Of a DNA stretch of 64,000 nucleotides, positions 12,668 to 57,557 are shown piece by piece (position 1 is the stretch's first letter; each line of letters opens with the position of its first letter). The DNA is taken from contig CAYZRP010000001.1 of the NCBI GenBank assembly GCA_964480865.1, positions 22,096 to 86,095 on the forward strand, read 5' to 3'. The stretch comes from an uncultured Anaerolineales bacterium. Lineage in GTDB: Bacteria; Chloroflexota; Anaerolineae; Anaerolineales; UBA6663. The notes beneath the pieces are model-generated. The model saw only the letters and a program-made list of their open reading frames with translations, had not been told where the DNA came from and ran no database searches. The translations under genes and the position numbers were made by a program.

Positions 12668-12690
12668 AACATCCGACCAGGGGGTGCGGC

Positions 12691-29958: not shown

Positions 29959-29972
29959 GAGGTCATGATCCT

Positions 29973-36410: not shown

Positions 36411-36431
36411 TGTGACGGTCCTGGACGTGGT

Positions 36432-36462
36432 GTGGCCACAAGGGCGGGGTGGCCACAAGGGC
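36432..36462. repeat. Tandem 14-bp direct repeat in the permease/hydrolase intergenic spacer
   Basis: gtggccacaagggc occurs at 36432-36445 and again at 36449-36462, with a 3-nt spacer. Each copy contains the palindrome GTGGCCAC. An 8-bp hairpin is possible: gggtggcc (36447-36454) with ggccaccc (36460-36467). Confidence 0.4.
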
Positions 36463-36467
36463 CACCC

Positions 36468-38257: not shown

Positions 38258-38270
38258 GCTTACCTCAGGG

Positions 38271-38426
38271 CGACGAACGACGAATGACGAACGACGAAGG
38301 TCAGGTGGCCGTGATGACAGGCCTTATGCCGGCCGAGAGTGGCACGCGGCTCGTGCGCTACTCTCGGGCCTGGGCACAACCTTCGTCATTCGTCCTTCGT
38401 CATTCGTCTGCTTTCGTCATTGGTCA
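38271..38426. repeat. Heptamer-array hairpin element B (YGACGAA units) between the SBP and permease genes
   Basis: Left arm cgacgaa/cgacgaa/tgacgaa/cgacgaa/gg (38271-38300). Right arm cc/ttcgtca/ttcgtcc/ttcgtca/ttcgtct (38380-38409), plus ttcgtca/ttggtca extending to 38426. The arms pair at 26 of 29 positions. The 79-nt loop contains an inner hairpin (gccgagagt...actctcgggc). Confidence 0.65.
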
Positions 38427-38435
38427 GCCGACCAG

Positions 38436-39779
38436 CTAGCTCAACCCCAGCGCCTTGCGCTCAGTGTCGACGATCTCCTGAGCGGCGGCCACAGCCGCGT
38501 CGAGCTCGCCCTTGATCTTGTCACGCTCGATGTCGCCCAGATAGATCCTGTCGTACAGGTCCTGGTTCAGGCGCGTGACCTTGCTGAAGTACGGGAAGCG
38601 CCCCGAGAACTCCCAGACCTGCGGGGTCTTGAGGATCTCGAAGAAGAACTTGACGCGCGCGTCATCCTTGGCCGGGTGCTCGGGCCACAACGCCGGGATG
38701 TTGGCCGTGTAGCCCTTGTTCTGGGCCTGCAGGAAGCGCTGGCCGTCCGTGCCTGTCATCCACTTCAGCCACTCCCAGGCCGCGTCCTTCTTCTGGCTGG
38801 CCTTGGGGATGCCCAGCTGGAGCGTCCAGCCGTTTGTGATGACTTCCTGGCCTTCGACCTTCGGATTATGCACAAGGCCGAACTTGACGCCTGAGCCATC
38901 GACGCGCTGGAACTGGCCGTTGTTGAGGCCGGCGAAGCCGAGGCGGCCGGTCATGAACAGATCGATCGGGCCGGTGCCCTCGGTGCTGAGTGCCTGGAAC
39001 TCCGAGAAGGTCGGCACCGCGCCGGAGCGTGCAAGGTCCCACATGAACTCGAAGGCCGCCACGGTCTCGGGCCCGTTCATGTAGCCGTCGACGACCTTGC
39101 CCTCGTTGTCGAAGGGGCGGGCGCCGAACGCGAAGAACTCCGCGCGCCAGACGCGCGTGGGCATCGCGGCGCCGAAGATCTTCTTGTCGCGATCGGTGAG
39201 GGCGACGGCGTCTTCCATCCACTGCTGCATCGTATAGCCCCACTCGGGGGCCTTCAGGCCCTTCTCACCGAACAGGGTCTCGTTGTAGAAGTACATGGTC
39301 GCGCCGACGCCGATCGGCATGCCGATGATCTGCTCGCCGTAGCGGCAGCGCGAGTCGAAGTGCACCTTCGAGTACATGCCGAGGTCGACCTTGTCGCGAT
39401 CGATGTAGGTGCGAAGATCCTCGGCCTGCGGGAACCAGTCCGCGCTCCAGAAAGTGGTGACGTCGGGCACGCCTGAGCCGGTGCCGAGCACCGTCGTCAT
39501 CTTCTCCGAGAAGCCGTCGTCGGGCAGGAAGGTGGCGTTGACCTTGACGGTCTTGCCAGCCTCGCTGGCCTGGAAGGCGTCGAGCCAGGCGCGCTGCGTG
39601 GGTTCGTCGCCGACGTCGGCGCCTCCGACCGTCCACCAATCGATCTCGGTGACCGGGACTGCAGTGGCCGGGACCGCTGTGGGGGTGGCCGCAGGTGTGC
39701 AGGCACCCAGGGCGAGGCCTGCGGTGGTGTAGCCCGCATATTGCAGGAAGGCACGGCGGGACAGGGTGTTGAGTTTCAT
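38436..39779 (-). CDS. Extracellular solute-binding lipoprotein, sugar ABC transporter (CUT1 type)
   Basis: ATG at 39779 follows ggaggaaag. MKLNTLSRRAFLQYAGYTTAGLALGAC gives a Tat-like RR motif plus lipobox. About 447 aa, family 1 SBP size. Confidence 0.85.
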   Translation of the reverse strand: MKLNTLSRRAFLQYAGYTTAGLALGACTPAATPTAVPATAVPVTEIDWWTVGGADVGDEPTQRAWLDAFQASEAGKTVKVNATFLPDDGFSEKMTTVLGTGSGVPDVTTFWSADWFPQAEDLRTYIDRDKVDLGMYSKVHFDSRCRYGEQIIGMPIGVGATMYFYNETLFGEKGLKAPEWGYTMQQWMEDAVALTDRDKKIFGAAMPTRVWRAEFFAFGARPFDNEGKVVDGYMNGPETVAAFEFMWDLARSGAVPTFSEFQALSTEGTGPIDLFMTGRLGFAGLNNGQFQRVDGSGVKFGLVHNPKVEGQEVITNGWTLQLGIPKASQKKDAAWEWLKWMTGTDGQRFLQAQNKGYTANIPALWPEHPAKDDARVKFFFEILKTPQVWEFSGRFPYFSKVTRLNQDLYDRIYLGDIERDKIKGELDAAVAAAQEIVDTERKALGLS

Positions 39780-39878
39780 GGGCAGCTTTCCTCCTCGGAC
39801 TGTCGAACGATGATTGGAGCAGTTGGGCATCAAGGCCAGCGATAGGTCCTGTCGACGGTCACCTCCTCTGAATGACGT

Positions 39879-40862
39879 TCACCGGATCAGGTCGGCCAAC
39901 TGGCTGGCTAACCGGCCCACATCCTCGTGGGCCGCGAAGCGCAAACACACGCCCGCAGGTTGGCGCACACGCGCGATCCATTCCGCAGGGATCACGCCGA
40001 CTCCCTGACGGGCGCCGGCGAGCGCGCCCACGACGGCCCCGATCGTGTCGGCGTCGCGGCCGAAGTTGCAGGCCCAGAACATCCCGCGCCTGAAGTCGCC
40101 GGCGGTGAGCCGGAACACGGCCAGGGCCTGCGGGATCGCTTCCGCGCTGACCGAGTGCACGGGCGTCCACAGGTCGTCGTGCAGGCGTTCCCAGGCGGCT
40201 TCGATCGAACCCGCTGCGGCGCAGATGGCGTCGGCGCGATCGAGCGCGCGACAGAGCCAGCTGTCAGTGGGGATAGGGCGTCGGGCAGCGTCGAGGATTT
40301 CGTCGGGCGTGCCGTCAACCATGGCGATGGACACCGCGGCTGCGACGGCCTGAGCTGCCCAGATCCCGTCGCCGTCATGGCTGACCTGGGCCTCGATGCC
40401 GGCGAGGGCGATCGCGCGCTCGGGGTCGCCGGCGCAAAGAATGCCGATCGGCGCGATGCGCATCGCGGCGCCGTCATCGTCGTTCATCACGTTGTCGCGG
40501 CCCGAGAGCGGCGGGAGGATGCCGCGCTGCAGGTTAGCCACCGCGCCGTACAGGGGCCGGCCACCCCGTTCGAAAAGGCCGCCCTGATCCAGGATCAAGC
40601 GCCGCCAGGTGTCGACCACGGCTTCCAGGGTCAGGTCGCCGCCGCAGTCGATCAGAGTCCGGGCGGTGAGCAGCGCGAACTCGGTGTCGTCGGTGCTGCG
40701 CGCCGCGCCGTTCAGCGACGTTGCCAGGCCGTAGCGCTTACGGTGTTCGTCGTTGCGCCCGAGATCGCCGAGGGCATCGCCCACCGCCAGCCCGAGCAGG
40801 GCGCCCTGCGCCTTTGTGGAGCGCAGCGCGGGATCGTCGATGAGCGCCTGTCGCGAGATCAT
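39879..40862 (-). CDS. ADP-ribosylglycohydrolase-family protein (first gene of the operon)
   Basis: ATG at 40862 follows ggagga. GALLGLAVGDALGDLG, STDDTEFALL and NFGRDADTIGAVVGALAGARQGVGVIPAEW are present. Confidence 0.8.
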   Translation of the reverse strand: MISRQALIDDPALRSTKAQGALLGLAVGDALGDLGRNDEHRKRYGLATSLNGAARSTDDTEFALLTARTLIDCGGDLTLEAVVDTWRRLILDQGGLFERGGRPLYGAVANLQRGILPPLSGRDNVMNDDDGAAMRIAPIGILCAGDPERAIALAGIEAQVSHDGDGIWAAQAVAAAVSIAMVDGTPDEILDAARRPIPTDSWLCRALDRADAICAAAGSIEAAWERLHDDLWTPVHSVSAEAIPQALAVFRLTAGDFRRGMFWACNFGRDADTIGAVVGALAGARQGVGVIPAEWIARVRQPAGVCLRFAAHEDVGRLASQLADLIR

Positions 40863-40890
40863 GGCTATCCTCCAGAGGTACGTCCGGATC

Positions 40891-40908
40891 TGCGGGAACG
40901 TTCCCACA
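40891..40908. promoter_or_regulatory. LacI-family operator (cre/PurR-like AACGTT core) upstream of the ARH/ABC operon
   Basis: tgcgggaacgttcccaca has a perfect 12-bp palindromic core gggaacgttccc. Located 29-46 nt upstream of ATG 40862. It is the exact reverse complement of the site at 41983-42000. Confidence 0.6.
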
Positions 40909-40967
40909 CTTGATCCAAAAAAGACGATCCACCGAACCGGGCTCGGTTCAGGGGATCGGGTACAGCG

Positions 40968-41978
40968 TCAGAAGCGCGGCGGCGCTGTGGTGCCGCGTAC
41001 GGCCAGCTGACAGGGCAGGGCGCGCAGGCGGCCCTGTGGTGGCGCATCGCCGTTCAGGCGTTCAAGCACGAACTGGGCGGCGACGTGGCCGGTTTCGTAT
41101 TTGGCTTTGACCATGGTGGTCAGCGGCGGCGTCGTGATCGCTGCCGGATAGATGTCGTCCATGCCGATGATCGAGAGGTCGCCGGGCACGTCGATGCCGG
41201 CTTCATGCGCCGCCTGCAGGGCGCCGATGGCGAGATTGTCGTTAGACGCGAAGACGGCCGTCGGGCGCTCGTGCAGCGCCAGCAACTGCCGCATGGCCCA
41301 GTGCCCGCCAGCGCGATCAAAGGGAGCCTCAACCACCAGTTGCTCATCGTGGGGCAGATTGTGGTTGCGCAAAAACTCGAGGTAGCCATTGAGGCGGGAT
41401 TGGGCCCAGCCGATGCGGTGCTGGCCCCAGATGAACCCGATGCGCCGATGCCCCAAAACGTAGAGGTAATTGAAGGCCTCGAGCGTGCCATTGTAGCTGT
41501 CGGAACCCACAACGTCGAAATTCTCGAAAGCATTGCCAACCCCCAGCACCACCGTCGGGGTTCGCAACGCGAGAAGGTCTTGATTCGTCACGGCCGTGGG
41601 GTTAATGACCAGGGCGTCGAACCGGTTGCGCCTCAGGGTGCGCAGGAAGCCCTTCTCGCGCTCGACGTCCCAGTCGCTGTTGGCCAGCACCACCGAGTAG
41701 CCGGCCGACTCGACAGTGTCCTGCAAACCGCGCGCCACTTCGGGCCAGAACGGGTTGGTGATGTCCGGGGTGACCAGCATCATCATGAAGGTCCGCTCGG
41801 TGCGCAGGCTGCTGGCGATTGCGTTGCGCTCGTAACCCAGATCTCGAATCGCGCGCAGGACGAGATCTTGCGTTTCAACGCTGACGCGTTGCCGATCGCC
41901 TTGCAGCACGCGCGACACCGTGGATTTGGAGACCCCGGCGCGCGCCGCGACATCGATGATGGTGGGTCGAGAAGGCAT
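40968..41978 (-). CDS. LacI-family transcriptional regulator
   Basis: MPSRPTIIDVAARAGVSKSTVSRVLQG HTH followed by a sugar-binding-fold effector domain. 336 aa. Confidence 0.9.
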   Translation of the reverse strand: MPSRPTIIDVAARAGVSKSTVSRVLQGDRQRVSVETQDLVLRAIRDLGYERNAIASSLRTERTFMMMLVTPDITNPFWPEVARGLQDTVESAGYSVVLANSDWDVEREKGFLRTLRRNRFDALVINPTAVTNQDLLALRTPTVVLGVGNAFENFDVVGSDSYNGTLEAFNYLYVLGHRRIGFIWGQHRIGWAQSRLNGYLEFLRNHNLPHDEQLVVEAPFDRAGGHWAMRQLLALHERPTAVFASNDNLAIGALQAAHEAGIDVPGDLSIIGMDDIYPAAITTPPLTTMVKAKYETGHVAAQFVLERLNGDAPPQGRLRALPCQLAVRGTTAPPRF

Positions 41979-42254: not shown

Positions 42255-43406
42255 ATGAGCAGCACTCGGCATTTTGAAGCGGTGGTTGTGGGTGGCGGCC
42301 TGGTCGGTAGCTCGATCGCCTATCACCTCGCCCGTGCCAGCGTCCCCACCTTGCTGATTGAGCAGGGTGATCTGGCCTCCGGCGCTTCAGGCGCGAACTT
42401 CGGCAACGTTCAGGTGGAGGACTCGGAGTTCGGCTTGAGCCTGGAACTGACTCTGCGCGGCTTCGCGCGTTTCGCTGATCTGCAGGCTGAGCTGGATTAT
42501 GACGTGGGCCTCCGGCGAACGGGCCAGCTCTTGTTGATCGAGAATCGCCGACAGATGGCGCTCATGCAGGAACGGGCGGTCCGCCTGAACGCAGCGGGCT
42601 TGCATACTGCGTTGCTGGACAACGCCACGCTAGGTCATCTGGAACAGCACGTGAACCCCGACGTTGCGCTGGGCGCGCTCTATCATCCCGACGAGGCCAC
42701 GCTGGATCCCTTCAGGCTCGTGCGTGCCTTCGTGTTGCGCGGTCAGGATCGAGGCCTGGAAGTCTGGACCCATACACGCGTGACGGGCATCGACATCCAG
42801 GGTGGGCGGGTGATAGGCGTCTCGACGCCGGTGGCGCGTGTGTCGGCCCGCTGGGTGATACTGGCCGCCGGTGCCTGGGCACACGAATTGGGCCGGCTGG
42901 CAGGCGTCGATCTGCCGATGGGCTGGATCCACGGTGAGGCAGCGATTACGGAACCCCTGGCACCGGTGGCGTCAAACGCGCTGGCCACGGCAGCCTTCTT
43001 TGAGGCGACAGCAGGCGCGGATGAACAGACCGTGGGGTTCTGTCTTCGCCAGCGTCCGCAGGGTCATGTCATGATCGGGGAGGCGGCCACGCTTACACGC
43101 GCCTTAAGCCGTCGGACGAGCGCCTCGGCTCTGCCCGCGATCGCGCGCGAGGCCGGTCGCTGGATACCCGGTTTGCGGCGCGCGCACGTGATCCGATCCT
43201 GGGCAATCCCTGTGGCGTTCACGGCCGACAACCGGCCGCTGTTGGGACCCGTTGACGGGATCGACGGCCTGGTCGCTGCGACAGCGCTCAAGAGCACCAT
43301 CATCTGGACACCGGTTGTCGGCGAGTTGGTGGCCGGCCTGATCGCGGACTCGCGTTGGGATGCGCGGCTCGATGAGTTCTCGCCTACCCGCCGCGACATC
43401 ACCTGA
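42255..43406 (+). CDS. FAD-dependent oxidoreductase (DAO / sarcosine-oxidase-beta-like family)
   Basis: N-terminal dinucleotide fold HFEAVVVGGGLVGSSIAYHLA...LLIEQGDLASGASGANFG. 383 aa. Confidence 0.8.
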   Translation: MSSTRHFEAVVVGGGLVGSSIAYHLARASVPTLLIEQGDLASGASGANFGNVQVEDSEFGLSLELTLRGFARFADLQAELDYDVGLRRTGQLLLIENRRQMALMQERAVRLNAAGLHTALLDNATLGHLEQHVNPDVALGALYHPDEATLDPFRLVRAFVLRGQDRGLEVWTHTRVTGIDIQGGRVIGVSTPVARVSARWVILAAGAWAHELGRLAGVDLPMGWIHGEAAITEPLAPVASNALATAAFFEATAGADEQTVGFCLRQRPQGHVMIGEAATLTRALSRRTSASALPAIAREAGRWIPGLRRAHVIRSWAIPVAFTADNRPLLGPVDGIDGLVAATALKSTIIWTPVVGELVAGLIADSRWDARLDEFSPTRRDIT

Positions 43407-43631: not shown

Positions 43632-44207
43632 TCAGAAGACAGGCGGTGTAATCGCCGAAATGTAGGTGGCCTCGCCTTCACCTGACACCGTGAGTGAACT
43701 GAGGGTGCGGCCCTCGAAATAGATGCTGTCGCCAGCTTCGAGCTGGTACATCTGGCCCGAGATGACGACGTTGATCTTGCCGGTCAGCAGCACAAGGCAT
43801 TCCTCGGTCGGCTCGGCCAGCGGCGCCACGACGATGTTTCCATCCTCTGCCGTAACCCGCCCCTGAAATAGAACCATTTTCCGGTTCAGGGTAGGGGTCA
43901 GAATCTCGTATTGGATGTGACCGTTCGAAAGGTTCAGACGGCGGCGCTCATGTCTCCTGACCACCGGACTGCTTTCAGACGTAGCGGTGGCCATGAACAA
44001 CAGCGACGTGCCCAGGGCGGTCGAGACTTTGCGCAGCGAATCCAGAGTGGGGTTGGCTATCCCGCGCTCCAGATTGCTCAAGAATGTCGCGCTCAAACCT
44101 GTGGAGGCCGACAGGTCGCGCAGGCTGAGGTTCAGTTCGGTCCGCCTGGCCTTGATGTGGGAACCGATCCTCACGACTTCTTCATCGGGTGCGTTTTGAT
44201 CTGGCAT
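43632..44207 (-). CDS. XRE-family HTH regulator with a C-terminal cupin domain
   Basis: IGSHIKARRTELNLSLRDLSASTGLSATFLSNLERGIANPTLDSLRKVSTAL (HTH), plus a cupin-like C-terminus (ECLVLLTGKINVVISGQMYQLEAGDSIYFEG). Confidence 0.85.
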   Translation of the reverse strand: MPDQNAPDEEVVRIGSHIKARRTELNLSLRDLSASTGLSATFLSNLERGIANPTLDSLRKVSTALGTSLLFMATATSESSPVVRRHERRRLNLSNGHIQYEILTPTLNRKMVLFQGRVTAEDGNIVVAPLAEPTEECLVLLTGKINVVISGQMYQLEAGDSIYFEGRTLSSLTVSGEGEATYISAITPPVF

Positions 44208-44412: not shown

Positions 44413-45408
44413 CTACCAGCGGGCATGGACCTGGCTGCGAATGCGCCGGTCATAGACAGACCTTGCCTGAGCATGCACCTCAGCCGATAGGGGCGGCCAC
44501 TCTGCCGCCCGCGCATTGTCCACTACCTGGGCCGGGTACTTGGCCCCTGGGATCGTGCACGTCACTGCCTCGAAATCCAGGATCCAGCGCAGCGCGAACT
44601 GCGCGAACGTCATCCCGGCGGCGACGAGCGGGCGAAGTTCCTCGACTGCGGCCAGCCCGGTCTGATAATCCACGCCACTGAACGTCTCGCCTTTGTCGAA
44701 GATCTCGCCGTTGCGGTTAACGACCCGATGATCGTCCGGCTCGAAGACGGTGTCGGGCTTCATCTTTCCGGTCAGCATGCCCGACGCCAGCGGCACGCGT
44801 GCGATGACGGCGACGCCGCGCCGAAGCGCTTCGCTGAAGAACAATTCGGCCGGACGCTGCCGGAACAGGTTGAACACGATCTGGATCGATTGGACGTTCG
44901 GGAACTCGATCGCCTTCAGACCCTCTTCCACCTTCTGGACACTGACGCCGTAGTGCTGGAGTTTGCCGGTCTGAACGATCTCGTCGAGCGCTCCGAAAGT
45001 CTCGGGCCTGTAATACACCTCGGGCGGCGGGCAGTGCAGTTGGAGCAGGTCGATCCGCTCGACGCCCAGGTTCTTCAGGCTCTGGTCGACGAACGCCTCG
45101 AGATTGACCCGGTTGTAGCCTTCGGCCACGTGCGGGTGCAACCTCCGGCCGGCCTTGGTCGCGATCAGGATCGGCTCCTGACGTTCGCGCTTCAACTGCC
45201 CGAGTAGCTTCTCGCTGTGCCCATCGCCGTTCGCGCCGTACACGTCCGACGTGTCGAAGAAGTTGATGCCCAGGTCGACCGCTTTGTGAAGCGCCGCGAG
45301 CGAGTCTCGGTCGTCGACATGCCCGAACTCGCCGCCGATCTCCCAGGCTCCGAAGCCGATCGGCGACACCTCCCAACCCGTCCTGCCAAAGCTGCGATTG
45401 CGCATCAA
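44413..45408 (-). CDS. Aldo/keto reductase
   Basis: RSFGRTGWEVSPIGFGAWEIGG...ALHKAVDLGINFFDTSDVYG...IDLLQLHCP is the canonical AKR pattern. 331 aa. Confidence 0.9.
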   Translation of the reverse strand: MMRNRSFGRTGWEVSPIGFGAWEIGGEFGHVDDRDSLAALHKAVDLGINFFDTSDVYGANGDGHSEKLLGQLKRERQEPILIATKAGRRLHPHVAEGYNRVNLEAFVDQSLKNLGVERIDLLQLHCPPPEVYYRPETFGALDEIVQTGKLQHYGVSVQKVEEGLKAIEFPNVQSIQIVFNLFRQRPAELFFSEALRRGVAVIARVPLASGMLTGKMKPDTVFEPDDHRVVNRNGEIFDKGETFSGVDYQTGLAAVEELRPLVAAGMTFAQFALRWILDFEAVTCTIPGAKYPAQVVDNARAAEWPPLSAEVHAQARSVYDRRIRSQVHARW

Positions 45409-45429: not shown

Positions 45430-46398
45430 TCAGAGCTCGTAGCCGAAATACGAACGCGCCAGCACGCCCAGGTTGATCTGTCCGCCCACGAACGAGTGGC
45501 CGGTCTTCAGGCTGTTGATGATGACCTTCGCCGGCGAGTCGACAAGATCCGGCACCTCGAACCAGTTGCGGTTGTACTTCTCGAAGATGCGCGCGAACGG
45601 CATCCCCCAGAGCTCGCCCGAGTTCACGTCGAACGTGAAGGTCGGCAGGATCGACATGATGGCTTCATCGGGCACGTCGGCGTAGAGCACGGTGGTGGCG
45701 CCGTAGAAGAGGGCGTCGTTGGCGCGGCCCATCATCTCGCCCTCGTCGCCCACGAGCGGCGCGACCGGCGCGGTGCCGAAGCCGAACTTGACGGCATGGA
45801 TGTCGAAGCCGCGCAGGAAGAGCTTGATCATCACCTGCTCGACCGTGCGCGACGCGACCTGGATCGCGCCCACCAGGCAGGCCGTCGGCGCAAACACCAC
45901 GTAGACCTGCTCGGGCTGTACGCCGCACGCGGTCGCCACGAACTTGCAAAGATCATCGGACGGCACGCGCGTGGTTTGCAACTGCACGACCACTGCGCTC
46001 GGGTCCGGGTCGCGATAGCCGTGGCCGGACCAGCGATCGGCCAGCGCCACAGCCCGCGCCGGGCCGGAACCGATTTGGGCGAACTCGCCCTTGCCGAGCT
46101 CCCAGCAACCGGCCTGCGAGGCCACGACCGCGAGCACCGGGTTGTCGACCCAGACGTCGATCGACGGCACCGTAAACGGGCCGACCTCGAACCGGCCGTA
46201 GCCGGCACGGCCCTGGCCGCCGAACCCGGCCTCGACGAAGACCTGGCCGGCCTTCCAGCTTCCCGGGCAGCTGATGCCCATGTCGACGAGCGTGGCGCCG
46301 CAGTCGGCCTTCCACGACTTGATCTGAAGCTCTTCGGCATGCTCGATCGCGTCCTGCACGAGCTTCACGGCGTTTCGATTGAGGCTGATCGTCGTCAT
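45430..46398 (-). CDS. Methenyltetrahydromethanopterin-cyclohydrolase (Mch)-family protein, paralogue 1
   Basis: Start at 46398 (ggaga RBS) gives MTTISLNRNAVKLVQDAIEHAEEL. VDMGISCPGSWKAGQVFVEAGFGG, LAVVASQAGCW, QIGSGPARA, MGRANDALFYG and SPAKVIINSLKTGHSFVGG follow the Mch family pattern along the whole length. Confidence 0.8.
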   Translation of the reverse strand: MTTISLNRNAVKLVQDAIEHAEELQIKSWKADCGATLVDMGISCPGSWKAGQVFVEAGFGGQGRAGYGRFEVGPFTVPSIDVWVDNPVLAVVASQAGCWELGKGEFAQIGSGPARAVALADRWSGHGYRDPDPSAVVVQLQTTRVPSDDLCKFVATACGVQPEQVYVVFAPTACLVGAIQVASRTVEQVMIKLFLRGFDIHAVKFGFGTAPVAPLVGDEGEMMGRANDALFYGATTVLYADVPDEAIMSILPTFTFDVNSGELWGMPFARIFEKYNRNWFEVPDLVDSPAKVIINSLKTGHSFVGGQINLGVLARSYFGYEL

Positions 46399-46438: not shown

Positions 46439-47938
46439 CTAGGCCCGGGCTGCGTTGATCGCTCGGGCAAGTTTTTGATACAGGCCAAGGCGTTCGGCAT
46501 ACAGGCCGGCGCGCTCGGGATCCGGTTCAAGGGAGTGATGGGCCGGCTGAAGCGCCGCGATCGCCTGATCGAGCGTCGAGTAGGCGCCGACGCCCCAACC
46601 AGCCAATGCAGCCGCTCCGACGGCGGCCCAGTCGGTGTCGGCCGCGACCTGGATCGGGATCCCGCAGGCGTCGGCCAGGATCTGCGACCAGACCGGGCTG
46701 CGATTGGCGCCGCCGGCCAGCCACAGTTCGTTGACAGGGACGTTCACCGAGCGCAGTTCCTCGAGCGCCCAACGCACTTCGAAGGCGCATCCCTCGAGCA
46801 CGGCCCGGCTCATGTCCGCACGCGTGTGTGCCAGCTCGAGGCCTACGAAGCCGCCGCCGGGTTTGGCCGCCGGGATCTGTGACGGCCCGCTCATCGACAT
46901 GAAGAACAGTCCGCGACTGCCGGCCGGGCTGACCGCCGCCGCCGCATTGAGCGCCGGGTAATACTTGCCAAGGTCCTCGCCTTCGGGCGTATCGACGGCG
47001 AAGCTCTGCCGCACCCACCAGTCGAGCGTGGCGCCGAAGCCTCCGACGAGCTGGCCGCCGAGGCGTTGCCCAGGCACGGCGTGGAAGTACAGGTTGACCC
47101 ACTCCGGCACCGCGTCGGTGGTGTCGGCCTCGACCACGCTCATCAACACCCAGGCGGTGCCGGTCGAAAGCATCACCTTGCCGGGCGCCGTCATCCCCAT
47201 GCCGAGGCCGGCGCAGGGCTGATCGTTGCCGCCGGCGATGACGGGCGTGCCCGCCGGCAGGTCCGTCAGCTGCGCGATCTCGGCCGTGATCTCGCCGACG
47301 CGCCGGCCGGCCCAACCGATGTCGGACTGCAACGACGCGTCGACGCCGCCGATTTCACACAGCTCGGTGTTCCATTCGCCCGTGCGGATGTCGACAAGCA
47401 GCATCTCGGACGAGGCCGACAGGTCTGTGGCGAAGCGGCCGGTCAGGCGATGGATGATGAAGTCCGCCGGGCCTAGATAGCGCTTCGCGGCGGCGTGCAC
47501 GTCCGGTCGATGCCGGCGCAGCCACCCGATAGACGGCAAGGGCAGCCCGGCGAAGGGGTGCCAGCCGCTCAGGCGTCTGATTGTCGCGGCCGTGCCGTCG
47601 GCATTCCATTCGTTGCTCTGTTCCTGGCTGCGGTTGTCGAGCCACGTGATCATGGGGTAGACCGGATCGCCCGCCAGATCTGTGGCGATGATCGAGCCGG
47701 CCTGAGCCGCGATCGCCAGCGATAGGATTCGGTAGCCCTCCATGCGCGCGACGATGTCTTTGAGGCTCTCGAGCAACGTCTGCCACACGGCTTCGGAGTC
47801 CTGTTCGACCCAACCCGGCTGCGGGGTCAGCAGCGGATAGGGCTGACCGGCACTGGCGACTTCTTTGCCGTCGAGGTCGAAGCCCATGATCTTCACCGAC
47901 GAGGTGCCGATGTCGATCCCCAGGATCGCGTCCTTCAT
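46439..47938 (-). CDS. FGGY-family carbohydrate kinase
   Basis: Start at 47938 (ATGA overlap with the aldolase stop) gives [21 protein letters not shown]...[12 protein letters not shown]. The C-terminal [25 protein letters not shown] is typical FGGY. Confidence 0.85.
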
Positions 47939-48720
47939 GCTCGACCTCGCTCGAAGATCTGTCTGGCGGAATCGCTGTCGGCTCCGCCGTGCACGATGGC
48001 CGACAGCGCGGCCACCATGGCCTGCGGGTCGCTGGCCTGGAAGACGTTGCGGCCAATGGCGACGCCTGCCGCGCCAGCCAGGATCGCTGCATGAACGGCC
48101 TTGAAGAGAGGATCCGGCGAATCGGCTCTCGCGCCTCCCAACATGACGACGGGAACGTACGTGTTCTGCACGACTCGCTCGAAGCCCTCGGCGTAAGGCA
48201 CCTTGGTCCAATCGGCGCCGAGTTCGGCCGCGACGCGCGCCGACAACGTGACAGCCTCGAGCGAGCGTCGCTCGGCCGGGGCATCGAATCCGCCCGGCTG
48301 CATCTCGGCCATCACGGGCAGGCCCCAGGCATGGGCGCTCGTGATGGTGTGCGCCAGAAGCTGAAGCGTCGCGGTCTCCTCCGGCGTGCCGGGGAAGGCC
48401 GAGACGGCCACGGCGTCAGCGCCGATCCGGAGTGCGTCTTCGACGGTGTAGAACGAGATGCCCGGCCCCATCTTGCCGAGCTTGGTCGCGCCGACGTCAA
48501 GGCGCAGGATCAAACCGAGCGGCGCGATCTCGGCCTCGAAGTTGCGGGCCATGCCGTAGCTGGTCAGGATGGCATCCGCGCCGCCCGCCACAAGTTGCGC
48601 GAGCAGGTCGGCCGGTGACTCGAGGCCGCGGACGGCGCCTTCGGTCAGGCCGTGATCGAGAGCCACGATCAGGGCGCGGCCATCCGAATGGAAGATGCGA
48701 TTGAGACGTCGACGCAGCAT
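47935..48720 (-). CDS. Class I aldolase of the DhnA/FbaB/LsrF (DeoC/LacD-like) family
   Basis: [20 protein letters not shown], then a Schiff-base lysine context GADWTKVPY, then VVMLGGAR. 261 aa. Confidence 0.8.
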
Positions 48721-48740: not shown

Positions 48741-49538
48741 TCAGACCGGCAGAAGCCGCTTGACTCGTTCGAGCGCTTCTACTTCCGTGGTCGACGGCGT
48801 GAACTCGAGACCGATGTAGCCGGTGTAGTTCAGTTCCACAAGCTTGCGATGGATGTTGACGAAGTTGATCTCGCCGGTGCCCGGCTCCTGGCGGGTGGGG
48901 ACGTCGCCGACGTGCACGGCGTCGTAGAGGCCTTTGTATTCCTCGAGGCCCCAGATCAGGTTTCCGGCCTGACGCTGCTGGTGATAGCAATCGAAGACCA
49001 TGCGCAATTTCGGGTGGTTGAAGCTCCGCACCCAGTCGGCCGCGAGACCGTGCTCGTTGACCAGGATGCCGCCCTTGATGTGGAACTCGTTGAGGGCCTC
49101 GACCCAGACGACGATGTTGGTCTGCTCGACGAGCTTCAGGATCCGCTCGGTCTGGCGCAGCGTGTTGGCGTACTGCTCGGCCGGCGTGAAGTTCGACGAC
49201 AGCCGCCGGGTCCACGTGCGCCCGTTGACGAAGTCGACCTGGTTTGAGAACAGGAACAGGTGCTCGACGCCGTGCTGGGCGGCCATCTCGAGGCTTTCGG
49301 CCCAGGTGCGCAGCGTGAGTTCGTTGTCGTTCGGGTCGGCCAGGCTGCCCATGTCGTCGTCGAAAGCCGAGTTCAACACCGCGCCGCAGCGCCGACACTC
49401 GGCCGCGATCTCGGCCATCGGCTGCATGCGCCACGACCACACGTCGAGCCGGCGCAGCCCAAGCGCCACCATCGGCTCGACGCGCTCGACGATCGGACGA
49501 TCCTTGAACCAGAAGTCCAGATACCCGGTGTATTCCAT
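48741..49538 (-). CDS. Xylose-isomerase-like TIM-barrel protein (hydroxypyruvate isomerase / OtnI-like)
   Basis: VWVEALNEF...MVFDCYHQQRQAGNL...HVGDVPTRQEPGTGEINFVNIHRKLVELNYTGYIGLEFTP is the Hyi/OtnI family signature. Confidence 0.8.
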   Translation of the reverse strand: MEYTGYLDFWFKDRPIVERVEPMVALGLRRLDVWSWRMQPMAEIAAECRRCGAVLNSAFDDDMGSLADPNDNELTLRTWAESLEMAAQHGVEHLFLFSNQVDFVNGRTWTRRLSSNFTPAEQYANTLRQTERILKLVEQTNIVVWVEALNEFHIKGGILVNEHGLAADWVRSFNHPKLRMVFDCYHQQRQAGNLIWGLEEYKGLYDAVHVGDVPTRQEPGTGEINFVNIHRKLVELNYTGYIGLEFTPSTTEVEALERVKRLLPV

Positions 49539-49604: not shown

Positions 49605-51026
49605 TTAATCTTCGCGCCCGGCGCGGATCAAGAAATCGATGGTCAACGGGATCAGCGGCGGACGGATGGTGTACATGCCGATCGCGTCGAGATGCACGGC
49701 GCTGTTCGATGCGGCCTGGATGGCGTCGGCGATCGCGCGCTCGCACATCCGACCCTGGCAGTTGCCCATGCCCGCGCGCGTGATCATCTTGACCTCGCCG
49801 ATCGTGCGCGCGCCATCCGCCACGGCCGCGCGCACCCGGCCCAGCGTGACTTCCTCGCAGCGGCACAGCGGCGTCTCGTCGTGCAGGGCGGCGCGCAGCC
49901 CGGCAGGCGGAGTGAAGTACGCGTTCAAGAACGCGCTGAAGCGCCGTTGTTGCTCCAGCGCGGGTTGCAGATCCTGTCGCAGCGCCGTCACGCGCGTGGT
50001 GTCGATCTTGCCGGCATCGAGCGCGGCCGTCCATCCGGCGAGCCGACCCTCGAGCCGCCCGAGCCCTGCGCCGCCGACCCGAGCGCCATCGCCGGCCACG
50101 TAAACGCCAGGGGCGTCTGTGCGCAGGTCAGCGTCGCGGGTGGGGAGCCACTGCCGGGTCTGCGCGTCGAAGTCGAAGCCGCAGCCGATCATGCGCGCCA
50201 GGCTCGTGTTGGGCGTGAAGCCGTAGCCGCTGATGACGGCGTCGACCTCGACCGCGACCTCGCTGCCCGCGATCGGCGCGCCCGTCGCATCGAGCCGAGC
50301 CAGGGTCGCGCCGGTCACCTTGCCTTCGCCGTGCGCGGCCACGACCGACCAGCCCTGCCGGTAGGGTGTCTTTCCGCGCACGAGCGCCGCCATGTACTGC
50401 CAGCCTTCGCCGAGCCGGCGGCCTTCGCGCAGCAGCGTTGGCGCATGGGCCACCACGCCGAGCGGCAGCCGGTTGGCCTCGCATACGCCGACGACGGTCA
50501 CGCCCGCATCGATCAGGTGCGCGGCGATGGAGAGCAGCAGCGGCCCGGTGCCAGTCACGACCACGCGCTTGAAGGGCGCAACCCGCTGCGACTTGACGAA
50601 GTTCAGGGCGGCGCCGCAGGTGATCACGCCTGGCAGCGTCCAGCCCGGGAAGGGCAGCGGCGTGTCGTAAGCGCCGGTCGCTAACACAAGGCGTTGGGCG
50701 TGGATCTTGCGCGGATCGCCGGAGCAGTTCAGGTCGATCTCCCAGCCGTCGCCGCTCTCTTCTTTGAAGATCCCCCAGACCTGCGCCTCGAAGATCCTGC
50801 GCACACCGGCCGGCTCGAGCCGATCGGCAAGCTGTTGCCCTTCACGTTCGACGACGGTCGGGCGGAGCGATCGGAAGGTTTCGGGCGAGCGGTGGTAATA
50901 CTGCCCGCCGGCAGCTGGAGCCTGGTCGATCAGGATCGTCTTCAATCCGGCGCCGGCCGCCGCCAGCGCGGCTTCGATGCCGGCTGGGCCGGCGCCCACG
51001 ACGGCGAGTTCGCATCGGTCGCTCAC
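49605..51026 (-). CDS. FAD/NAD(P)-binding oxidoreductase subunit with a BFD-like [2Fe-2S] motif (HcnB / opine-oxidase-A-like)
   Basis: GTG start at 51026 (GTGA overlap with the upstream stop) gives VSDRCELAVVGAGPAGIEAALAAAGAG. A second dinucleotide fold (VVVTGTGPLLLSIAAHL) is present, as is CRCEEVTLGRV...TRAGMGNCQGRMC. Confidence 0.75.
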   Translation of the reverse strand: MSDRCELAVVGAGPAGIEAALAAAGAGLKTILIDQAPAAGGQYYHRSPETFRSLRPTVVEREGQQLADRLEPAGVRRIFEAQVWGIFKEESGDGWEIDLNCSGDPRKIHAQRLVLATGAYDTPLPFPGWTLPGVITCGAALNFVKSQRVAPFKRVVVTGTGPLLLSIAAHLIDAGVTVVGVCEANRLPLGVVAHAPTLLREGRRLGEGWQYMAALVRGKTPYRQGWSVVAAHGEGKVTGATLARLDATGAPIAGSEVAVEVDAVISGYGFTPNTSLARMIGCGFDFDAQTRQWLPTRDADLRTDAPGVYVAGDGARVGGAGLGRLEGRLAGWTAALDAGKIDTTRVTALRQDLQPALEQQRRFSAFLNAYFTPPAGLRAALHDETPLCRCEEVTLGRVRAAVADGARTIGEVKMITRAGMGNCQGRMCERAIADAIQAASNSAVHLDAIGMYTIRPPLIPLTIDFLIRAGRED

Positions 51027-51328
51027 AGCTTCATCTCCTGGTTGGTCTCGATGGCCATGCCGGCTTTCACCGGCGTCAGGCAGGCACGCACCGCGTGAGC
51101 GCCGTCGATCGTCACAAGGCACTCGAAGCACACGCCCATGCCGCAGTAGACACCGCGCGGCTCGCTCGAGCGCGCCGATCGGCGCAATGCCACGAGGCCC
51201 GCCGCGTACAGCACCGTCGCCACGGTCTCGCCTTCGAAGGCCTCGACGGCCGAGCCGTTCACGGTAACGGGCACAGGTTTGCCGCGTGCCACTTCAGGCA
51301 GAAGCGTGCTCGACGTCTTGATCCGCAT
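51023..51328 (-). CDS. Small (2Fe-2S)-binding subunit (HcnA / sarcosine-oxidase-alpha N-terminal-like)
   Basis: ATG at 51328 follows ggagggga. VTVNGSAVEAFEGETVATVLYAAGL...GVYCGMGVCFECLVTIDG..AVRACLTPV. 101 aa. Confidence 0.75.
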   Translation of the reverse strand: MRIKTSSTLLPEVARGKPVPVTVNGSAVEAFEGETVATVLYAAGLVALRRSARSSEPRGVYCGMGVCFECLVTIDGAHAVRACLTPVKAGMAIETNQEMKL

Positions 51329-51366
51329 CCTGAAATCCCCTCCGGTCATTGACACAACGCGCCGGC

Positions 51367-52536
51367 TCAACTCGCGTGAGCTTCCCAATACGACTCGGTT
51401 GGCCCCGAGAAACGTGTCGGGGCATATTGCTCCAATGAGAGCGGCGGCTTTTCGCCGCGGAACATCAGGGCCACCCACTGCGCCAGTAGCGGCACCGCCG
51501 TGATCGTCTCCATCAGGCTCGTCGCCACGAACAGGTTGTCGAGCCCGGGCGCCCAGCCGACCAGCGGCTCCTCGTCGGGCGTGAACGACGTCGGCCGACC
51601 CCAGCTGCGCACGATCCGTACCTTTGTCAGGAACGGATAGAGCTTGACCAGATCGGTGGCCAGGGCCGACGGGCCCCACGAACTGACGCGATGATGCAGC
51701 TCGGGCGTGCGCGTGACCGATTCGGCGATCGCGAGCGTGCCGTTGAGCTCGGGATGGATCCCGATGGTCACGGCCTTGGGCTTGCCGTGGATGGTCTCGT
51801 AGCTGTCCGAAAGGCCGATGTTGTGGAAGATCCGTGGCGGGATCGCCTCGGTGATGAATGACTCGGCGTGAGCGTGGTGGATGGGCAGTTCGACACCCGC
51901 CAGCCGTATCACGGGGTTCTCCCAGGCGCCGGCCATGACGGCCACGATGCCCGCTGAATATGTCGCGACCGCGGTCTTCACCGACACGATGCGCCGGCCC
52001 TCGACCTGCAGGGCGATCACAGGCTCATGGCGGTGGAGCTCGGCGCCGAGGCGCCTGGCCGCGCGCGCGTAAGCGTGGATGAACCTCAGCGGATCAACGC
52101 GACCTTCGACCGAATGGACGGCGCCGAACAGGCCGTCGAGGACGAGGTTGGGCTCGGCCTCGCGCAGCGCGTCCACGTCGATCACTTCGGTCGGGATGCC
52201 GACCGAGGTCAGGAAGGTCGAGCGCTCGAGCCAGCTGGCCCGGTGGGGTTCACGGCGCAGCAACAACAGCAGCGACGCCCGGCGCCAGTCGTAGTCGTAG
52301 CCCAGTTCCTCGGCCAGATGCTCGTGTCGCTCGACGCCGCCGCGCACCAGGGCGATGTTGAGCGGGTCGAGGTGGCCCTCGCAGACCTGGGCGCGGCCCG
52401 AGCACGAGCCCGAGGTGCCGCTCCCCAGGTCGCCGGCCTCGAGCAACAACACCCGCAGGCCGGCCTTGGCGGCTTCGTAGGCGGCTGACACTCCCAGGAA
52501 TCCGCCGCCGATGATGATCACGTCGTGAGTCGTCAT
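51367..52536 (-). CDS. FAD-dependent oxidoreductase subunit (HcnC / opine-oxidase-B / sarcosine-oxidase-beta-like)
   Basis: MTTHDVIIIGGGFLGVSAAYEAAKAGLRVLLLEAGDLGSGTSGSCSG. 389 aa. The start overlaps the Mch-2 stop (ATGA at 52533-52536). Confidence 0.8.
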   Translation of the reverse strand: MTTHDVIIIGGGFLGVSAAYEAAKAGLRVLLLEAGDLGSGTSGSCSGRAQVCEGHLDPLNIALVRGGVERHEHLAEELGYDYDWRRASLLLLLRREPHRASWLERSTFLTSVGIPTEVIDVDALREAEPNLVLDGLFGAVHSVEGRVDPLRFIHAYARAARRLGAELHRHEPVIALQVEGRRIVSVKTAVATYSAGIVAVMAGAWENPVIRLAGVELPIHHAHAESFITEAIPPRIFHNIGLSDSYETIHGKPKAVTIGIHPELNGTLAIAESVTRTPELHHRVSSWGPSALATDLVKLYPFLTKVRIVRSWGRPTSFTPDEEPLVGWAPGLDNLFVATSLMETITAVPLLAQWVALMFRGEKPPLSLEQYAPTRFSGPTESYWEAHAS

Positions 52537-55940: not shown

Positions 55941-56012
55941 CTGGGTCTCGAAGCGGTTCGTGGCGCTTCACCAAACGTCACTGGTCGCAGTGTACTGTAG
56001 GCATTACAACAC

Positions 56013-57529: not shown

Positions 57530-57557
57530 TCGTGTCCGCGCAATCGGAGTGCGATTC

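Follow-up and report, generated by a model that had tools for sequence, protein, structure and literature searches.

Two divergent Mch-family paralogues in a non-C1 operon of an Anaerolineales bacterium are candidate hydrolases of a purine- or pteridine-type ring

The cyclohydrolase Mch, which acts on methenyl-tetrahydromethanopterin (methenyl-H4MPT), belongs to a family thought to serve only H4MPT-linked one-carbon (C1) metabolism. The breakdown of purines and pteridines has been described in other terms. The reductive uric-acid pathway comprises the genes XdhD, YgfK/UacX, SsnA, HyuA, YgeW/UacY, YgeY and YgeX (Li et al., 2025; Liu et al., 2025). Li et al. noted an F420-type reductase in the Chloroflexota variant of this pathway, and neither report mentions a cyclohydrolase or Mch. 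According to the published account of the reductive pathway, each of the three known purine routes has cleavage of the pyrimidine ring as its first step. In Cupriavidus, an aerobic proteobacterium, pterin and lumazine breakdown involves a UbiD-type decarboxylase and an isomerase, and ends in xanthine (Doi et al., 2025, PMC12391406). The current study concerns two Mch-family genes, mch1 and mch2 (products Mch1 and Mch2), in a 64,000 nt stretch of DNA from an Anaerolineales bacterium (Chloroflexota). This whole stretch is called the window, and all window coordinates are counted from its first letter. The reading we lean towards, which is drawn from sequence comparison, is that Mch1 and Mch2 are active cyclic-formamidine ring hydrolases (or, run in reverse, cyclases) that work outside H4MPT-linked C1 metabolism, in the catabolism of an imported purine- or pteridine-type N-heterocycle.

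Gene calling was GC3-guided and combined with family scans. The two genes are as follows.

45430–46398, minus strand: Mch1, 322 aa, non-canonical Mch-family cyclohydrolase of clade Mch1 (PF02289 E=1.5e-87; TIGR03120 264.6 bits)
52533–53501, minus strand: Mch2, 322 aa, non-canonical Mch-family cyclohydrolase of clade Mch2 (PF02289 E=2.3e-98; TIGR03120 301.8 bits)

Both proteins match PF02289 over the full length of the profile (1–311 of 311), with 294 bits for Mch1 and 330 bits for Mch2 against a cut-off of 25 bits, and both exceed the cut-off of the NCBI equivalog model TIGR03120 (228.8 bits). The original prediction, made from the DNA letters, had proposed two full-length Mch-family open reading frames (ORFs) here, and these scores bear it out. 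The motif pattern that it gave is essentially right, except for the canonical 'FSPA', which reads HSPA in Mch2 and DSPA in Mch1. Its claim of marked divergence between the copies also holds, since they share 32% identity (179 bits); the Mch of Methanopyrus kandleri (PDB 1QLM) is closer to each of them than its own paralogue is (228 bits for Mch1, 242 bits for Mch2). No third copy was found when all window ORFs were compared with both proteins by blastp. Among about 60 ORFs from all parts of the window, Pfam scans revealed none of the fae, mtd, fhc/ftr, mer or H4MPT-biosynthesis families, in agreement with the predicted absence of other H4MPT and C1 genes. The other window content includes glycosidases, sugar ATP-binding cassette (ABC) transporters, regulators, ADP-ribosylglycohydrolases and citrate-lyase subunits.

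The family to which these proteins belong is of modest extent, with 526 clusters (50% identity) at E<=1e-10 in a set of 1.84 billion representatives. When one genome per GTDB species was scanned, 204 relatives were found, the best 80 matches of which correspond to 78 loci. Among these best 80 of 204, carriers are found in Anaerolineales, uncultured Chloroflexia, Caldilinea, Clostridia, Peptococcaceae, Oscillospiraceae and Christensenellaceae, in Pseudoflavonifractor isolates and Clostridioides difficile-labelled strains, and in Halanaerobiales, Spirochaetales/Sediminispirochaeta, Fusobacteria and Acidimicrobiales; there are no methanogens or methylotrophs among them. The host taxa in this set, cultured Clostridia included, are not known to make H4MPT. 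The closest relatives are Anaerolineales metagenome-assembled genomes (MAGs). In one of these (L010), Mch2 is 92% identical and all 20 genes of the 42–64 kb region are syntenic at 85–98% identity, a closeness on which the assignment of the window to the Anaerolineales (Chloroflexota) is based. No plasmid relative was found in PLSDB, where a megablast search with the 44–62 kb region matched only short ABC-ATPase stretches.

A tree was built from 155 distinct Mch sequences (the locus sequences, distant homology-search matches and three PDB sequences) by neighbour joining with Kimura distances; a maximum-likelihood analysis would be preferable. Canonical Mch sequences are split from all others in 100/100 bootstraps. 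They form three groups, namely the Euryarchaeota with the PDB enzymes, Asgard and the methylotroph-type bacteria, and there are seven non-canonical groups. Clades Mch1, Mch2, Mch3 and Mch4 each have a bootstrap value of 100. This phylogeny, proposed as a check in the original prediction, places the window proteins outside the canonical clades and in two separate non-canonical ones. Mch1 and Mch2 are sisters in 0/100 bootstraps, and the window genes are therefore ancient paralogues and not the product of a recent duplication.

For the comparison of active-site residues, catalytic and switched positions are numbered as in the A. fulgidus enzyme (aMch), and the reference set is 41 canonical Mch sequences, among which 63 columns are at least 88% conserved. 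The catalytic pair of aMch, Arg183/Glu186, is kept as Arg184/Glu187 in Mch2 and Arg181/Glu184 in Mch1, and is 100% conserved in clades Mch1–Mch6. Essentially all non-canonical clades keep, besides this pair, Gln93, the G-S-G-P-A-R loop, Asn226/Asp227, Asp37, Tyr128 and Asp130. Upadhyay and co-workers are said to have found in 2012 that Glu186 and Arg183 are catalytic and that segment 93–95 lines the active site. The sole difference between PDB entries 4gvq and 4gvr, RIVE versus RIVQ, marks Glu186 and agrees with this role.

Four positions that are 97–100% invariant in the canonical sequences are switched in every non-canonical clade. These are Glu140 (to Gln), Cys56 (to Gly, Asn, Thr or Ser), Thr225 (to Ile, Ala or Val) and Phe280 (to His in Mch2–Mch5, or to Asp in Mch1 and Mch6). 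In addition, Lys94 of the canonical 'SQKAGW' is lost, the segment reading 'SQIGGY' in Mch2 and 'SQAGCW' in Mch1. The active-site comparison suggested with the original prediction, made here by alignment, thus has a divided outcome: the Arg/Glu pair stands, and four canonical-invariant positions are replaced, so that neither window protein conserves all the residues invariant in canonical Mch. Since the catalytic residues are kept and other invariant positions are switched, the catalytic machinery is preserved and several family-invariant positions are re-tuned. Such a combination would be expected if the chemistry were unchanged and the substrate related but different.

Both Mch genes lie in an 11-gene minus-strand operon, which runs from 55940 down to 44413. 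The sugar- and amine-catabolic neighbours noted in the original prediction are present; they are not a loose collection, and form one operon with both Mch genes. The minus strand, the single operon, the connection to purine/pteridine-type catabolism and the lipoyl-dependent E1/E2 partner are additions to that prediction. The other nine operon genes, followed by the features that flank them, are listed below.

54975–55940, minus strand: Rib7/RibD_C-type pyrimidine or pteridine reductase, first gene of the operon (weak PF01872 match)
53531–54949, minus strand: TRZ/ATZ-family metal-dependent aminohydrolase (PF01979 E=2e-60; start refined to 54949)
51367–52536, minus strand: DAO-family FAD subunit of an HcnABC/opine-oxidase/dye-linked proline-dehydrogenase-like amine dehydrogenase (PF01266 E=8e-51)
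51023–~51349, minus strand: small 2Fe-2S (Fer2_4-type) subunit of the HcnABC-like amine dehydrogenase (motif CGMGVCFEC; 101–108 aa)
49605–51026, minus strand: Pyr_redox_2, BFD 2Fe-2S and SO_alpha_A3 subunit of the HcnABC-like amine dehydrogenase (PF07992, PF04324, PF17806; GTG start at 51026)
48741–49538, minus strand: xylose-isomerase-like TIM-barrel isomerase/epimerase (PF01261 E=2e-20)
47935–48720, minus strand: DeoC/LsrF/DhnA-type class I aldolase (PF01791 E=1.5e-28)
46439–47938, minus strand: FGGY-family sugar/ketose kinase (PF00370, PF02782; ATG at 47938)
44413–45405, minus strand: aldo-keto reductase, last gene of the operon (PF00248 E=3e-61; syntenic in relatives L004 and L010)
43632–44207, minus strand: HTH_3 and cupin regulator (PF01381, PF07883)
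55989–56054, no strand assigned: divergent control region with back-to-back promoter-like sites and a palindrome (56013–56031)
56334–57338, plus strand: BMP/PnrA-family substrate-binding protein of a divergent ABC transporter (PF02608 E=5e-53)
57549–58661 and 58655–59713, plus strand: two BPD_transp_2 permeases (PF02653)
59710–61311, plus strand: tandem ABC ATPase (PF00005 in two stretches; start at 59710 gives 533 aa)
61427–62476, minus strand: D-2-hydroxyacid dehydrogenase (PF02826, PF00389; same position and 80–94% identity in L010–L013)
62702 to beyond 64000, plus strand: xanthine dehydrogenase (XDH)-family Mo hydroxylase (2Fe-2S subunit at 62702–63205; Mo subunit exceeds the window end)

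These genes are read as an operon because of their 4 nt overlaps, the lack of any terminator excess, the divergent promoters and the conserved operator. At four junctions, neighbouring genes overlap by 4 nt or leave a very short gap. A 4 nt overlap joins the stop of mch2 to the start of the DAO gene downstream, the stop of the small Fer2_4 subunit to the GTG start of the Pyr_redox_2/BFD gene, and the stop of the DeoC-type aldolase to the ATG of the FGGY kinase. The small subunit uses an internal start within ORF 51023–51679, and its orthologues in L004, L006 and L008 carry PF13510. Terminator-like sites inside the operon number 5, against 6.0 expected. The HTH_3-cupin regulator, the 2-hydroxyacid dehydrogenase and the XDH-family enzyme (PF01799/PF00111 and PF01315/PF02738, syntenic in L010–L013) flank the unit, and are syntenic in the closest relatives. 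The regulator recurs in 18 of the 59 reference-genome loci, each of at least 12 kb, on which all neighbourhood counts are based, and is seen for example in L001, L004, L006 and L008. A stand-alone DAO-family FAD oxidoreductase is encoded at 42255–43406 on the plus strand, between a LacI regulator and the HTH-cupin regulator, and is syntenic in L010 at 85% identity.

The control region between operon and transporter is 393 bp long and contains 4 promoter-like sites, against 1.2 expected. Two of these, TTGACA-18-TACACT on the minus strand and TTGACA-17-TAGGAT on the plus strand, have perfect TTGACA boxes and stand back to back. The palindrome TGTCAAC-N5-GTTGACA at 56013–56031 overlaps both. It is kept at the same position in L010–L013, L016, L001 and L052, though the flanks have diverged, with one arm reading GTTTACA in L016, L001 and L052. 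The adjoining gene differs in L001 and L052, and the palindrome is kept even beside a GntR gene instead of the reductase. The palindrome is plausibly a shared operator of the transporter and the Mch operon, and likely the operator of a GntR or HTH-cupin regulator.

The binding protein of the transporter has as PDB relatives Med, Lbp, the basic membrane lipoprotein 3s99, AtzT, PnrA and TpN38(b). The ligands of 3s99, AtzT, PnrA and TpN38(b) are presumably adenine, atrazine/guanine, purine nucleosides and riboflavin. The best NCBIfam models for the TRZ enzyme, all of them below cut-off, are TRZ/ATZ, 5'-deoxyadenosine deaminase, 8-oxoguanine deaminase and SsnA. Its PDB relatives are AtzA, MTA/SAH deaminase, 8-oxoguanine deaminase, the putative cytosine/guanine deaminase 2paj, which we take to be an isoxanthopterin deaminase, and guanine deaminase. 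The enzyme resembles purine and pterin deaminases, and appears to be related to SsnA.

The RibD_C-like reductase belongs to a small dedicated family (72 clusters, about 320 aa). It scores 32.9 bits against PF01872 and 29 bits against the NCBIfam pyrimidine reductase model, well short of that curated family's cut-off of 184, and no rib genes (ribA, ribH, ribE) lie near it. An AF2 model (pLDDT 93.4, pTM 0.92) was searched with Foldseek. M. mazei Rib7, MthRED, MjaRED, RibG/RibD and Rv2671 make up the 22 best matches and the greater part of the top 45; Rv2671, solved with a dihydropteridine, matches with TMq 0.61 and rmsd 2.9. DHFR-like matches, to a Leptospira enzyme, begin only at rank 46. Residues S62, D64 and G65 of the S-x-D-G motif are invariant. 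In the model, the protein has a Rib7/RibD fold with the S-x-D-G(K/R) motif. A more typical RibD_C-domain protein (14601–15383; PF01872 69.8 bits) is encoded elsewhere in the window, within 14601–17014 on the plus strand, beside a YCII-domain protein and an ECF-type sigma factor with DUF6596. This region appears to be unrelated to the Mch operon.

The amine dehydrogenase has the three-subunit composition of the HcnABC type, with DAO FAD, Pyr_redox_2/BFD 2Fe-2S and small Fer2_4 subunits. For its DAO subunit, the PDB gives 1y56_B (deposited under the name 'sarcosine oxidase') as the best match, and then dimethylglycine dehydrogenase, glycine oxidase and sarcosine oxidase beta. We take 1y56_B to be the beta subunit of the P. 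horikoshii L-proline dehydrogenase, a dye-linked secondary-amine dehydrogenase. The TIM-barrel isomerase has 2-oxo-tetronate isomerase and hydroxypyruvate isomerase as best NCBIfam models, both far below cut-off. In the PDB, the DeoC-type aldolase matches MJ0400 (133 bits) and LsrF (105 bits), and the FGGY kinase matches the autoinducer-2 (AI-2) kinase LsrK best (157.8 bits), approximately tied with gluconate kinase and xylulokinase. Suggestive as these matches are, Lsr-type AI-2 processing, or handling of 1-deoxypentodiulose by LsrK and LsrF, was rejected: the NCBIfam scores are far below the equivalog cut-offs (LsrK 193 versus 528, LsrF 162 versus 297) and there is no LsrG-type gene.

The neighbourhood is conserved in the relatives. 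Across the 59 loci, the most constant partners are a short-chain dehydrogenase/reductase (SDR; 53 loci) and the E1-alpha (53), E1-beta (53) and E2 (52) components of a lipoyl-dependent complex. A TRZ aminohydrolase is present in 39 loci and a RibD_C-like reductase in 27, where it adjoins the TRZ gene in 25 of 26 cases. Further partners are a BMP ABC transporter (28), an XDH-family Mo enzyme (22), the kinase/aldolase/isomerase set (17), reductive-urate-type genes (17) and HcnABC-like genes (10). Pfam-annotated contexts of related loci add E3, LipA and LplA. The E1-beta protein passes the cut-off of the pyruvate dehydrogenase (PDH) E1-beta subfamily; E1-alpha falls below the PDH equivalog cut-off (314 versus 394 bits). 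Two or more Mch genes are present in 23 of the loci, and a genome may hold up to three or four paralogues, every one of them with fixed neighbours of its own. Mch3 typically lies between SDR and E1-alpha (37–38 cases), Mch2 immediately downstream of E2 (22 cases) and Mch4 next to SDR (17 cases). Mch1 is always downstream of the FGGY kinase, as are its orthologues of 77–87% identity in L004, L006 and L008. In L024 and L036, E2 is apparently missing, which looks like frameshifted or gappy MAG sequence.

No C1 genes were found in about 12 Pfam-annotated related contexts. In a canonical control from Methylococcales, Mch adjoins Fae and also ATP-grasp/CitG genes that presumably serve H4MPT biosynthesis. 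The method therefore detects C1 neighbours when they are present. Neither the window nor these contexts show any association with H4MPT-linked C1 genes, and the non-C1 neighbourhood recurs across at least five phyla.

The order of the modules varies between loci. In L088 it is amidohydrolase, E3, E1-alpha, E1-beta, E2, isomerase, aldolase, kinase, two Mch genes and BMP transporter, and L089 contains all modules, including the HcnABC-like genes. As the modules in L088–L090 are shuffled yet remain together, they are read as one functional unit. The notion that the E1/E2 and SDR module and the kinase/aldolase/isomerase module are alternatives for one step was ruled out, since L088–L090 and the Chloroflexia loci carry both. 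The window lineage is unusual in that E1, E2 and SDR are lacking beside mch2. A close relative, L004, has a third Mch gene, of clade Mch4, with SDR and E2 about 8 kb away. In cultured Clostridia there is a compact cluster of amidohydrolase, xanthine/uracil permease, XDH small and large subunits, SDR, Mch, E1-alpha, E1-beta, E2, TRZ, RibD_C-like reductase and E3. This compact single-Mch cluster occurs in L041, L044 and L045 (C. difficile-labelled) and in L047, L051 and L068 (Pseudoflavonifractor). Closed or near-closed genomes with Mch clusters of the non-canonical kind include OY969938.1, OY969772.1, OX246690.1 and the Anaerolineales JBGAGY01/JBGAJV01.

In Chloroflexia, the Mch1 orthologues are immediately followed by genes for an SsnA-like protein, XDH, an F420-type luciferase-like oxidoreductase (the LLM protein), a YgeW-like OTCase (carbamoyltransferase) and YgeY, with HyuA upstream (L006, 11064–18924; L008, 11017–18552; L009). 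HyuA scores 488 bits against a cut-off of 393, and YgeY 404 against 321. The best family matches of the LLM protein are models of Mer, the methylene-H4MPT reductase (156 bits versus a cut-off of 276). What stands here beside Mch1 is the Chloroflexota variant that Li et al. noted for the reductive uric-acid (2,8-dioxopurine) cluster. Of the full reductive gene set, the window has only the XDH-family enzyme and a TRZ relative of SsnA.

In spirochaete loci, the order is SDR, E1-alpha, E1-beta, a normal E2 and then mch2, the last two overlapping by 4 nt. Two metagenomic proteins, P0313 (48% identical to Mch2) and P0407, consist of a lipoyl domain, an E3-binding domain (E3BD) and an MCH domain. They are encoded at 6478–7848 of L092 and 2377–3795 of L093, and on both contigs the fusion occupies the E2 slot, in the order SDR, E1-alpha, E1-beta, fusion, SRPBCC. 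Since the two fusions are merely 40% identical to each other, the arrangement is old. Replacement of E2 in its own slot argues that Mch2-type proteins physically associate with the lipoyl complex. The catalytic Glu has been lost from both fusions, which also lack parts of the GSGPAR loop or of the C-terminal region. No such fusion was seen among 90 loci examined; canonical-type Mch fusions carry ATP-grasp domains, presumably of the H4MPT-biosynthesis type. In spirochaete-type clusters (L003, L092, L093), a small SRPBCC/Polyketide_cyc2 protein is consistently encoded downstream of the Mch2-type gene, and may be a ligand-binding accessory protein.

Together, the non-canonical clades at 100/100, the four switched positions and the conserved non-C1 neighbourhood support the original suggestion of a recruitment of the Mch fold to another cyclic-amidine or formamide substrate. 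A heterocyclic substrate is suggested by the similarity of the TRZ enzyme to purine and pterin deaminases, by the Rib7/RibD-like reductase, by the relatives of the BMP protein, and by the xanthine/uracil permease and urate genes of related loci. The imported compound probably has a 5,6-diaminopyrimidine core with a ribosyl, ribityl or polyol chain. It would enter through the BMP-type ABC transporter, which shares the palindromic operator with the operon. An Mch-type enzyme would then, by means of its Arg/Glu pair, hydrate a five-membered formamidine ring (N-CH=N). Foremost among the possible rings is the imidazol(in)e of a purine or a purine nucleoside, which would give a 5-formamidopyrimidine with the same 5-N-formyl-pyrimidine head as N5-formyl-H4MPT; this specific assignment to the purine imidazole ring is put forward tentatively, as something we think doubtful. 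The TRZ aminohydrolase and Rib7/RibD-like reductase would deaminate and reduce the (ribosylamino)pyrimidine in the manner of RibD. The HcnABC-like secondary-amine dehydrogenase would take off the side chain, for the isomerase, FGGY kinase, DeoC-type aldolase and aldo-keto reductase to consume, with the SDR and the lipoyl-dependent E1/E2/E3 complex also involved in most other genomes. Leftover ring nitrogen and carbon would pass into purine-type breakdown through the Mo hydroxylase and, in relatives, the SsnA/HyuA/YgeW/YgeY reductive urate genes. The analysis shows the family to which the proteins belong, their separate clades, the kept catalytic residues, the operon, its conserved neighbours and the reductase fold; the reaction, its substrate and the sequence of steps are inferred.

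If so, this may represent a fourth strategy for the breakdown of purines, purine nucleosides or related pteridines, with metal-free ring opening by Mch, processing by the TRZ and Rib7-like enzymes, and harvesting of carbon as acyl-CoA by lipoyl E1/E2/E3; such a strategy is conceivable, with the balance of probability against it. It would form a catabolic mirror of early riboflavin and pterin biosynthesis, in which Mch associates with the lipoyl complex and in some lineages replaces the E2 catalytic domain; taken jointly, these proposals are speculative to a similar degree. No description of the non-canonical Mch clades or of the gene cassette was found in the literature searched.

Several points weigh against a ring hydrolase of this kind. 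Aromatic purine imidazole rings are normally opened by Zn-dependent cyclohydrolases, and the substrate of Mch is a cationic amidinium; the ring would therefore have to be activated, by reduction, N-alkylation or in some other way. The TIGR03120 scores above cut-off and the 34–45% identity to archaeal Mch enzymes may leave room for methenyl-H4MPT activity. The most constant partners, SDR and E1/E2 (52–53 of 59 loci), are absent from the window, and their place in the proposed scheme is a loose one. In the C. difficile-type clusters there is a nucleobase permease and no sugar module, a combination that suits a base better than a nucleoside. Finally, the loss of the catalytic Glu in both lipoyl fusions indicates that the MCH domain may be only structural in those lineages. 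Thiamine (by thiazolium opening), creatinine, ectoine, histidine-derived imidazoles and cofactor F420 or riboflavin were also considered as substrates and rejected, as the transporter, deaminase and reductase evidence gives them no specific support.

A different heterocycle accounts better for the SDR and E1/E2. If the pathway degrades pteridines or lumazines (biopterin- or neopterin-type pterins, 6,7-dimethyl-8-ribityllumazine or further compounds of the riboflavin pathway), pterin deamination would fall to the TRZ enzyme, dihydropteridine reduction to the RibD_C-like protein and hydroxylation of a pterin or lumazine to the XDH-family enzyme. The SDR and acetoin-dehydrogenase-like E1/E2 would cleave an acyloin or diketone (a 1'-hydroxy-2'-oxopropyl side chain, or pyrazine-derived diacetyl), which explains these partners better than the purine scheme does. 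Mch would hydrolyse a C=N bond of the reduced pyrazine ring, or close 5-formamido-6-aminouracil to xanthine. The natural substrate of Mch is a tetrahydropterin, Rv2671 is among the best structural matches of the reductase, the presumed isoxanthopterin deaminase 2paj is in the TRZ group, the BMP-family TpN38(b)/RfuA reportedly binds riboflavin, and two ring C=N bonds would suit two paralogues. A bacterial route from pterin through lumazine to xanthine, with a Mo dehydrogenase, an amidohydrolase-type enzyme and a pterin deaminase, is known (Doi et al., 2025, PMC12391406), but it lacks Mch and needs the UbiD-type decarboxylase, which is absent here. Moreover, pyrazine imines are not formamidines, no pterin-specific marker was found, and the adjacent reductive urate genes and xanthine/uracil permease favour purines at least as strongly. 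Pteridine degradation is a rival to be taken seriously, but is regarded as unlikely.

Salvage or dismantling of genuine (methenyl- or formyl-)H4MPT or methanopterin, with its pterin head and aminophenyl-ribityl-ribose tail, from the biomass of methanogens or methylotrophs would explain why the TIGR03120 equivalog cut-off is passed and the catalytic set intact. The best scores of the LLM protein beside the relatives are to Mer models, the RibD_C-like protein might be an analogue of dihydromethanopterin reductase, and the kinase, aldolase and isomerase would suit a ribityl or ribose tail. Many of the host lineages share habitats with methanogens, such as digesters, sediments and the gut. Up to three or four divergent paralogues per genome are, however, hard to justify for one reaction, and four canonical-invariant residues are switched. 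The Mer-like matches lie far below the cut-offs (156 versus 276 bits), and Li et al. assign the LLM protein to isoxanthine reduction. The clusters also occur in soil Chloroflexia and C. difficile-like strains, and the transporter types suggest small purine-like ligands. Salvage is accordingly considered improbable.

That the Mch-like proteins are non-catalytic scaffolds or ligand-binding subunits of the lipoyl complex or of a dehydrogenase is suggested by the lipoyl-E3BD-MCH fusions, in which the catalytic domain of E2 is replaced and the catalytic Glu of Mch is gone. Trimer formation is common to Mch and that E2 domain. Against this, Arg183, Glu186, Gln93, GSGPAR and Asn226/Asp227 are at or near 100% in clades Mch1–Mch5, the window copies included, and the window operon has no E1/E2 to scaffold, making a purely structural role very improbable here. 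Weakest of all, and scarcely credible, is an ordinary Mch of the H4MPT formaldehyde-oxidation or C1 pathway in a coincidental neighbourhood. Family scores are strong, and H4MPT genes, here supposed to lie elsewhere in the genome, are sometimes dispersed. Against this, the non-canonical clades split from the canonical at 100/100, 59 loci from at least five phyla share these non-C1 neighbours, with 4 nt gene overlaps, the canonical control has a C1 gene beside it where about 12 Pfam-annotated contexts have none, and the hosts are not known to make H4MPT.

Other features of the window were also recorded. A second unusual cluster, at 26697–41978 on the minus strand, contains four ADP-ribosylglycohydrolase-family genes (26697–28766, 28918–30045, 33657–34919 and 39879–40907), a citrate-lyase alpha gene, CitF (30950–32848), and a gene for a CitE-type lyase fused to an ACP-like domain (32503–33741). 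It also has two esterases or alpha-beta hydrolases, a Kelch-repeat protein, a sugar-type ABC transporter (36468–39833) and the LacI regulator (40968–41978). This looks like a catabolic operon for a glycosylated or ribosylated compound. The region 11300–14600 has a GC content of 0.586, against about 0.64, and contains an ORF without a Pfam match (11571–12473) and another with only HTH_31 (12691–14100); it is possibly acquired DNA. A 727 aa protein with a CopC domain and a C-terminal cytochrome c domain is encoded at 21369–23552 on the plus strand.

If the favoured assignment to N-heterocycle catabolism is true, the Mch family has a function beyond H4MPT-linked C1 metabolism. At least four or five uncharacterized Mch clades with fixed gene partners have been identified. 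As these genes pass the TIGR03120 equivalog cut-off, they carry the annotation of a genuine Mch in about 200 reference species, gut Clostridia and C. difficile-like strains among them. Such annotation can mislead reconstructions, giving false H4MPT or methanogenesis-like C1 pathways in MAGs of Chloroflexi and Clostridia. The cluster adjoins the newly discovered reductive urate pathway, and may be an unknown branch of anaerobic purine or pteridine turnover, with relevance to gut purine and urate homeostasis and to the recycling of nucleic acids and cofactors in digesters and soils. The lipoyl-E3BD-Mch fusion is an unusual architecture for a complex of the 2-oxoacid-dehydrogenase type, and no description of it was found in the literature searched. 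Cultured strains with a compact nine-gene version of the cluster, such as Pseudoflavonifractor gallinarum DSM 107456, make the hypothesis directly testable.

Compared with canonical Mch (EC 3.5.4.27; PDB 1QLM, 4GVQ/4GVR/4GVS, 4FIO), the window proteins have the same fold and length, 34–45% identity and the same catalytic residues. They differ in falling into clades of their own, in the four switched residues and the loss of Lys94, in the lack of C1 neighbours and in their non-methylotrophic hosts. With the Arg/Glu pair and Gln93 retained, along with the GSGPAR loop and the N-D motif, the chemistry is probably that of canonical Mch, namely the reversible hydrolysis of a cyclic formamidinium to an N-formyl amine.

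By analogy, the trio of cyclohydrolase, deaminase and pyrimidine reductase recalls GTP cyclohydrolase II/III with RibD or archaeal Rib7, which act on a 5,6-diaminopyrimidine core, and the adjoining deaminase and reductase genes (25 of 26 loci) mirror the fused RibD. The riboflavin pathway differs in using a Zn cyclohydrolase of the RibA/ArfA type and a CDA-fold deaminase, where the window has an Mch-type enzyme and a TRZ/ATZ amidohydrolase. The window context is also catabolic, with an uptake transporter, kinase and aldolase and dehydrogenases, and is without ribA, ribH and ribE; that its reductase and deaminase act on nucleoside-derived substrates is something we infer. In relation to the reductive uric-acid pathway, the TRZ enzyme belongs to the SsnA amidohydrolase group, and the pairing of a reductase with a hydrolase resembles YgfK with SsnA. 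SsnA, HyuA, YgeW, YgeY and YgeX themselves are lacking in the window, which has only the XDH-family genes.

The E1-alpha, E1-beta, E2 and SDR genes common to the non-canonical Mch loci, with E3, LipA and LplA nearby, resemble those of acetoin and pyruvate dehydrogenase complexes; the window differs in having no E1/E2, and in two lineages an Mch domain replaces the E2 acyltransferase domain. The Cupriavidus cluster is likewise catabolic, and combines a pterin deaminase, a Mo dehydrogenase and an amidohydrolase-type enzyme, but it has no Mch, Rib7-like reductase, E1/E2 or BMP transporter. The enzyme family is a known one, and the pathway in which these members take part may be new.

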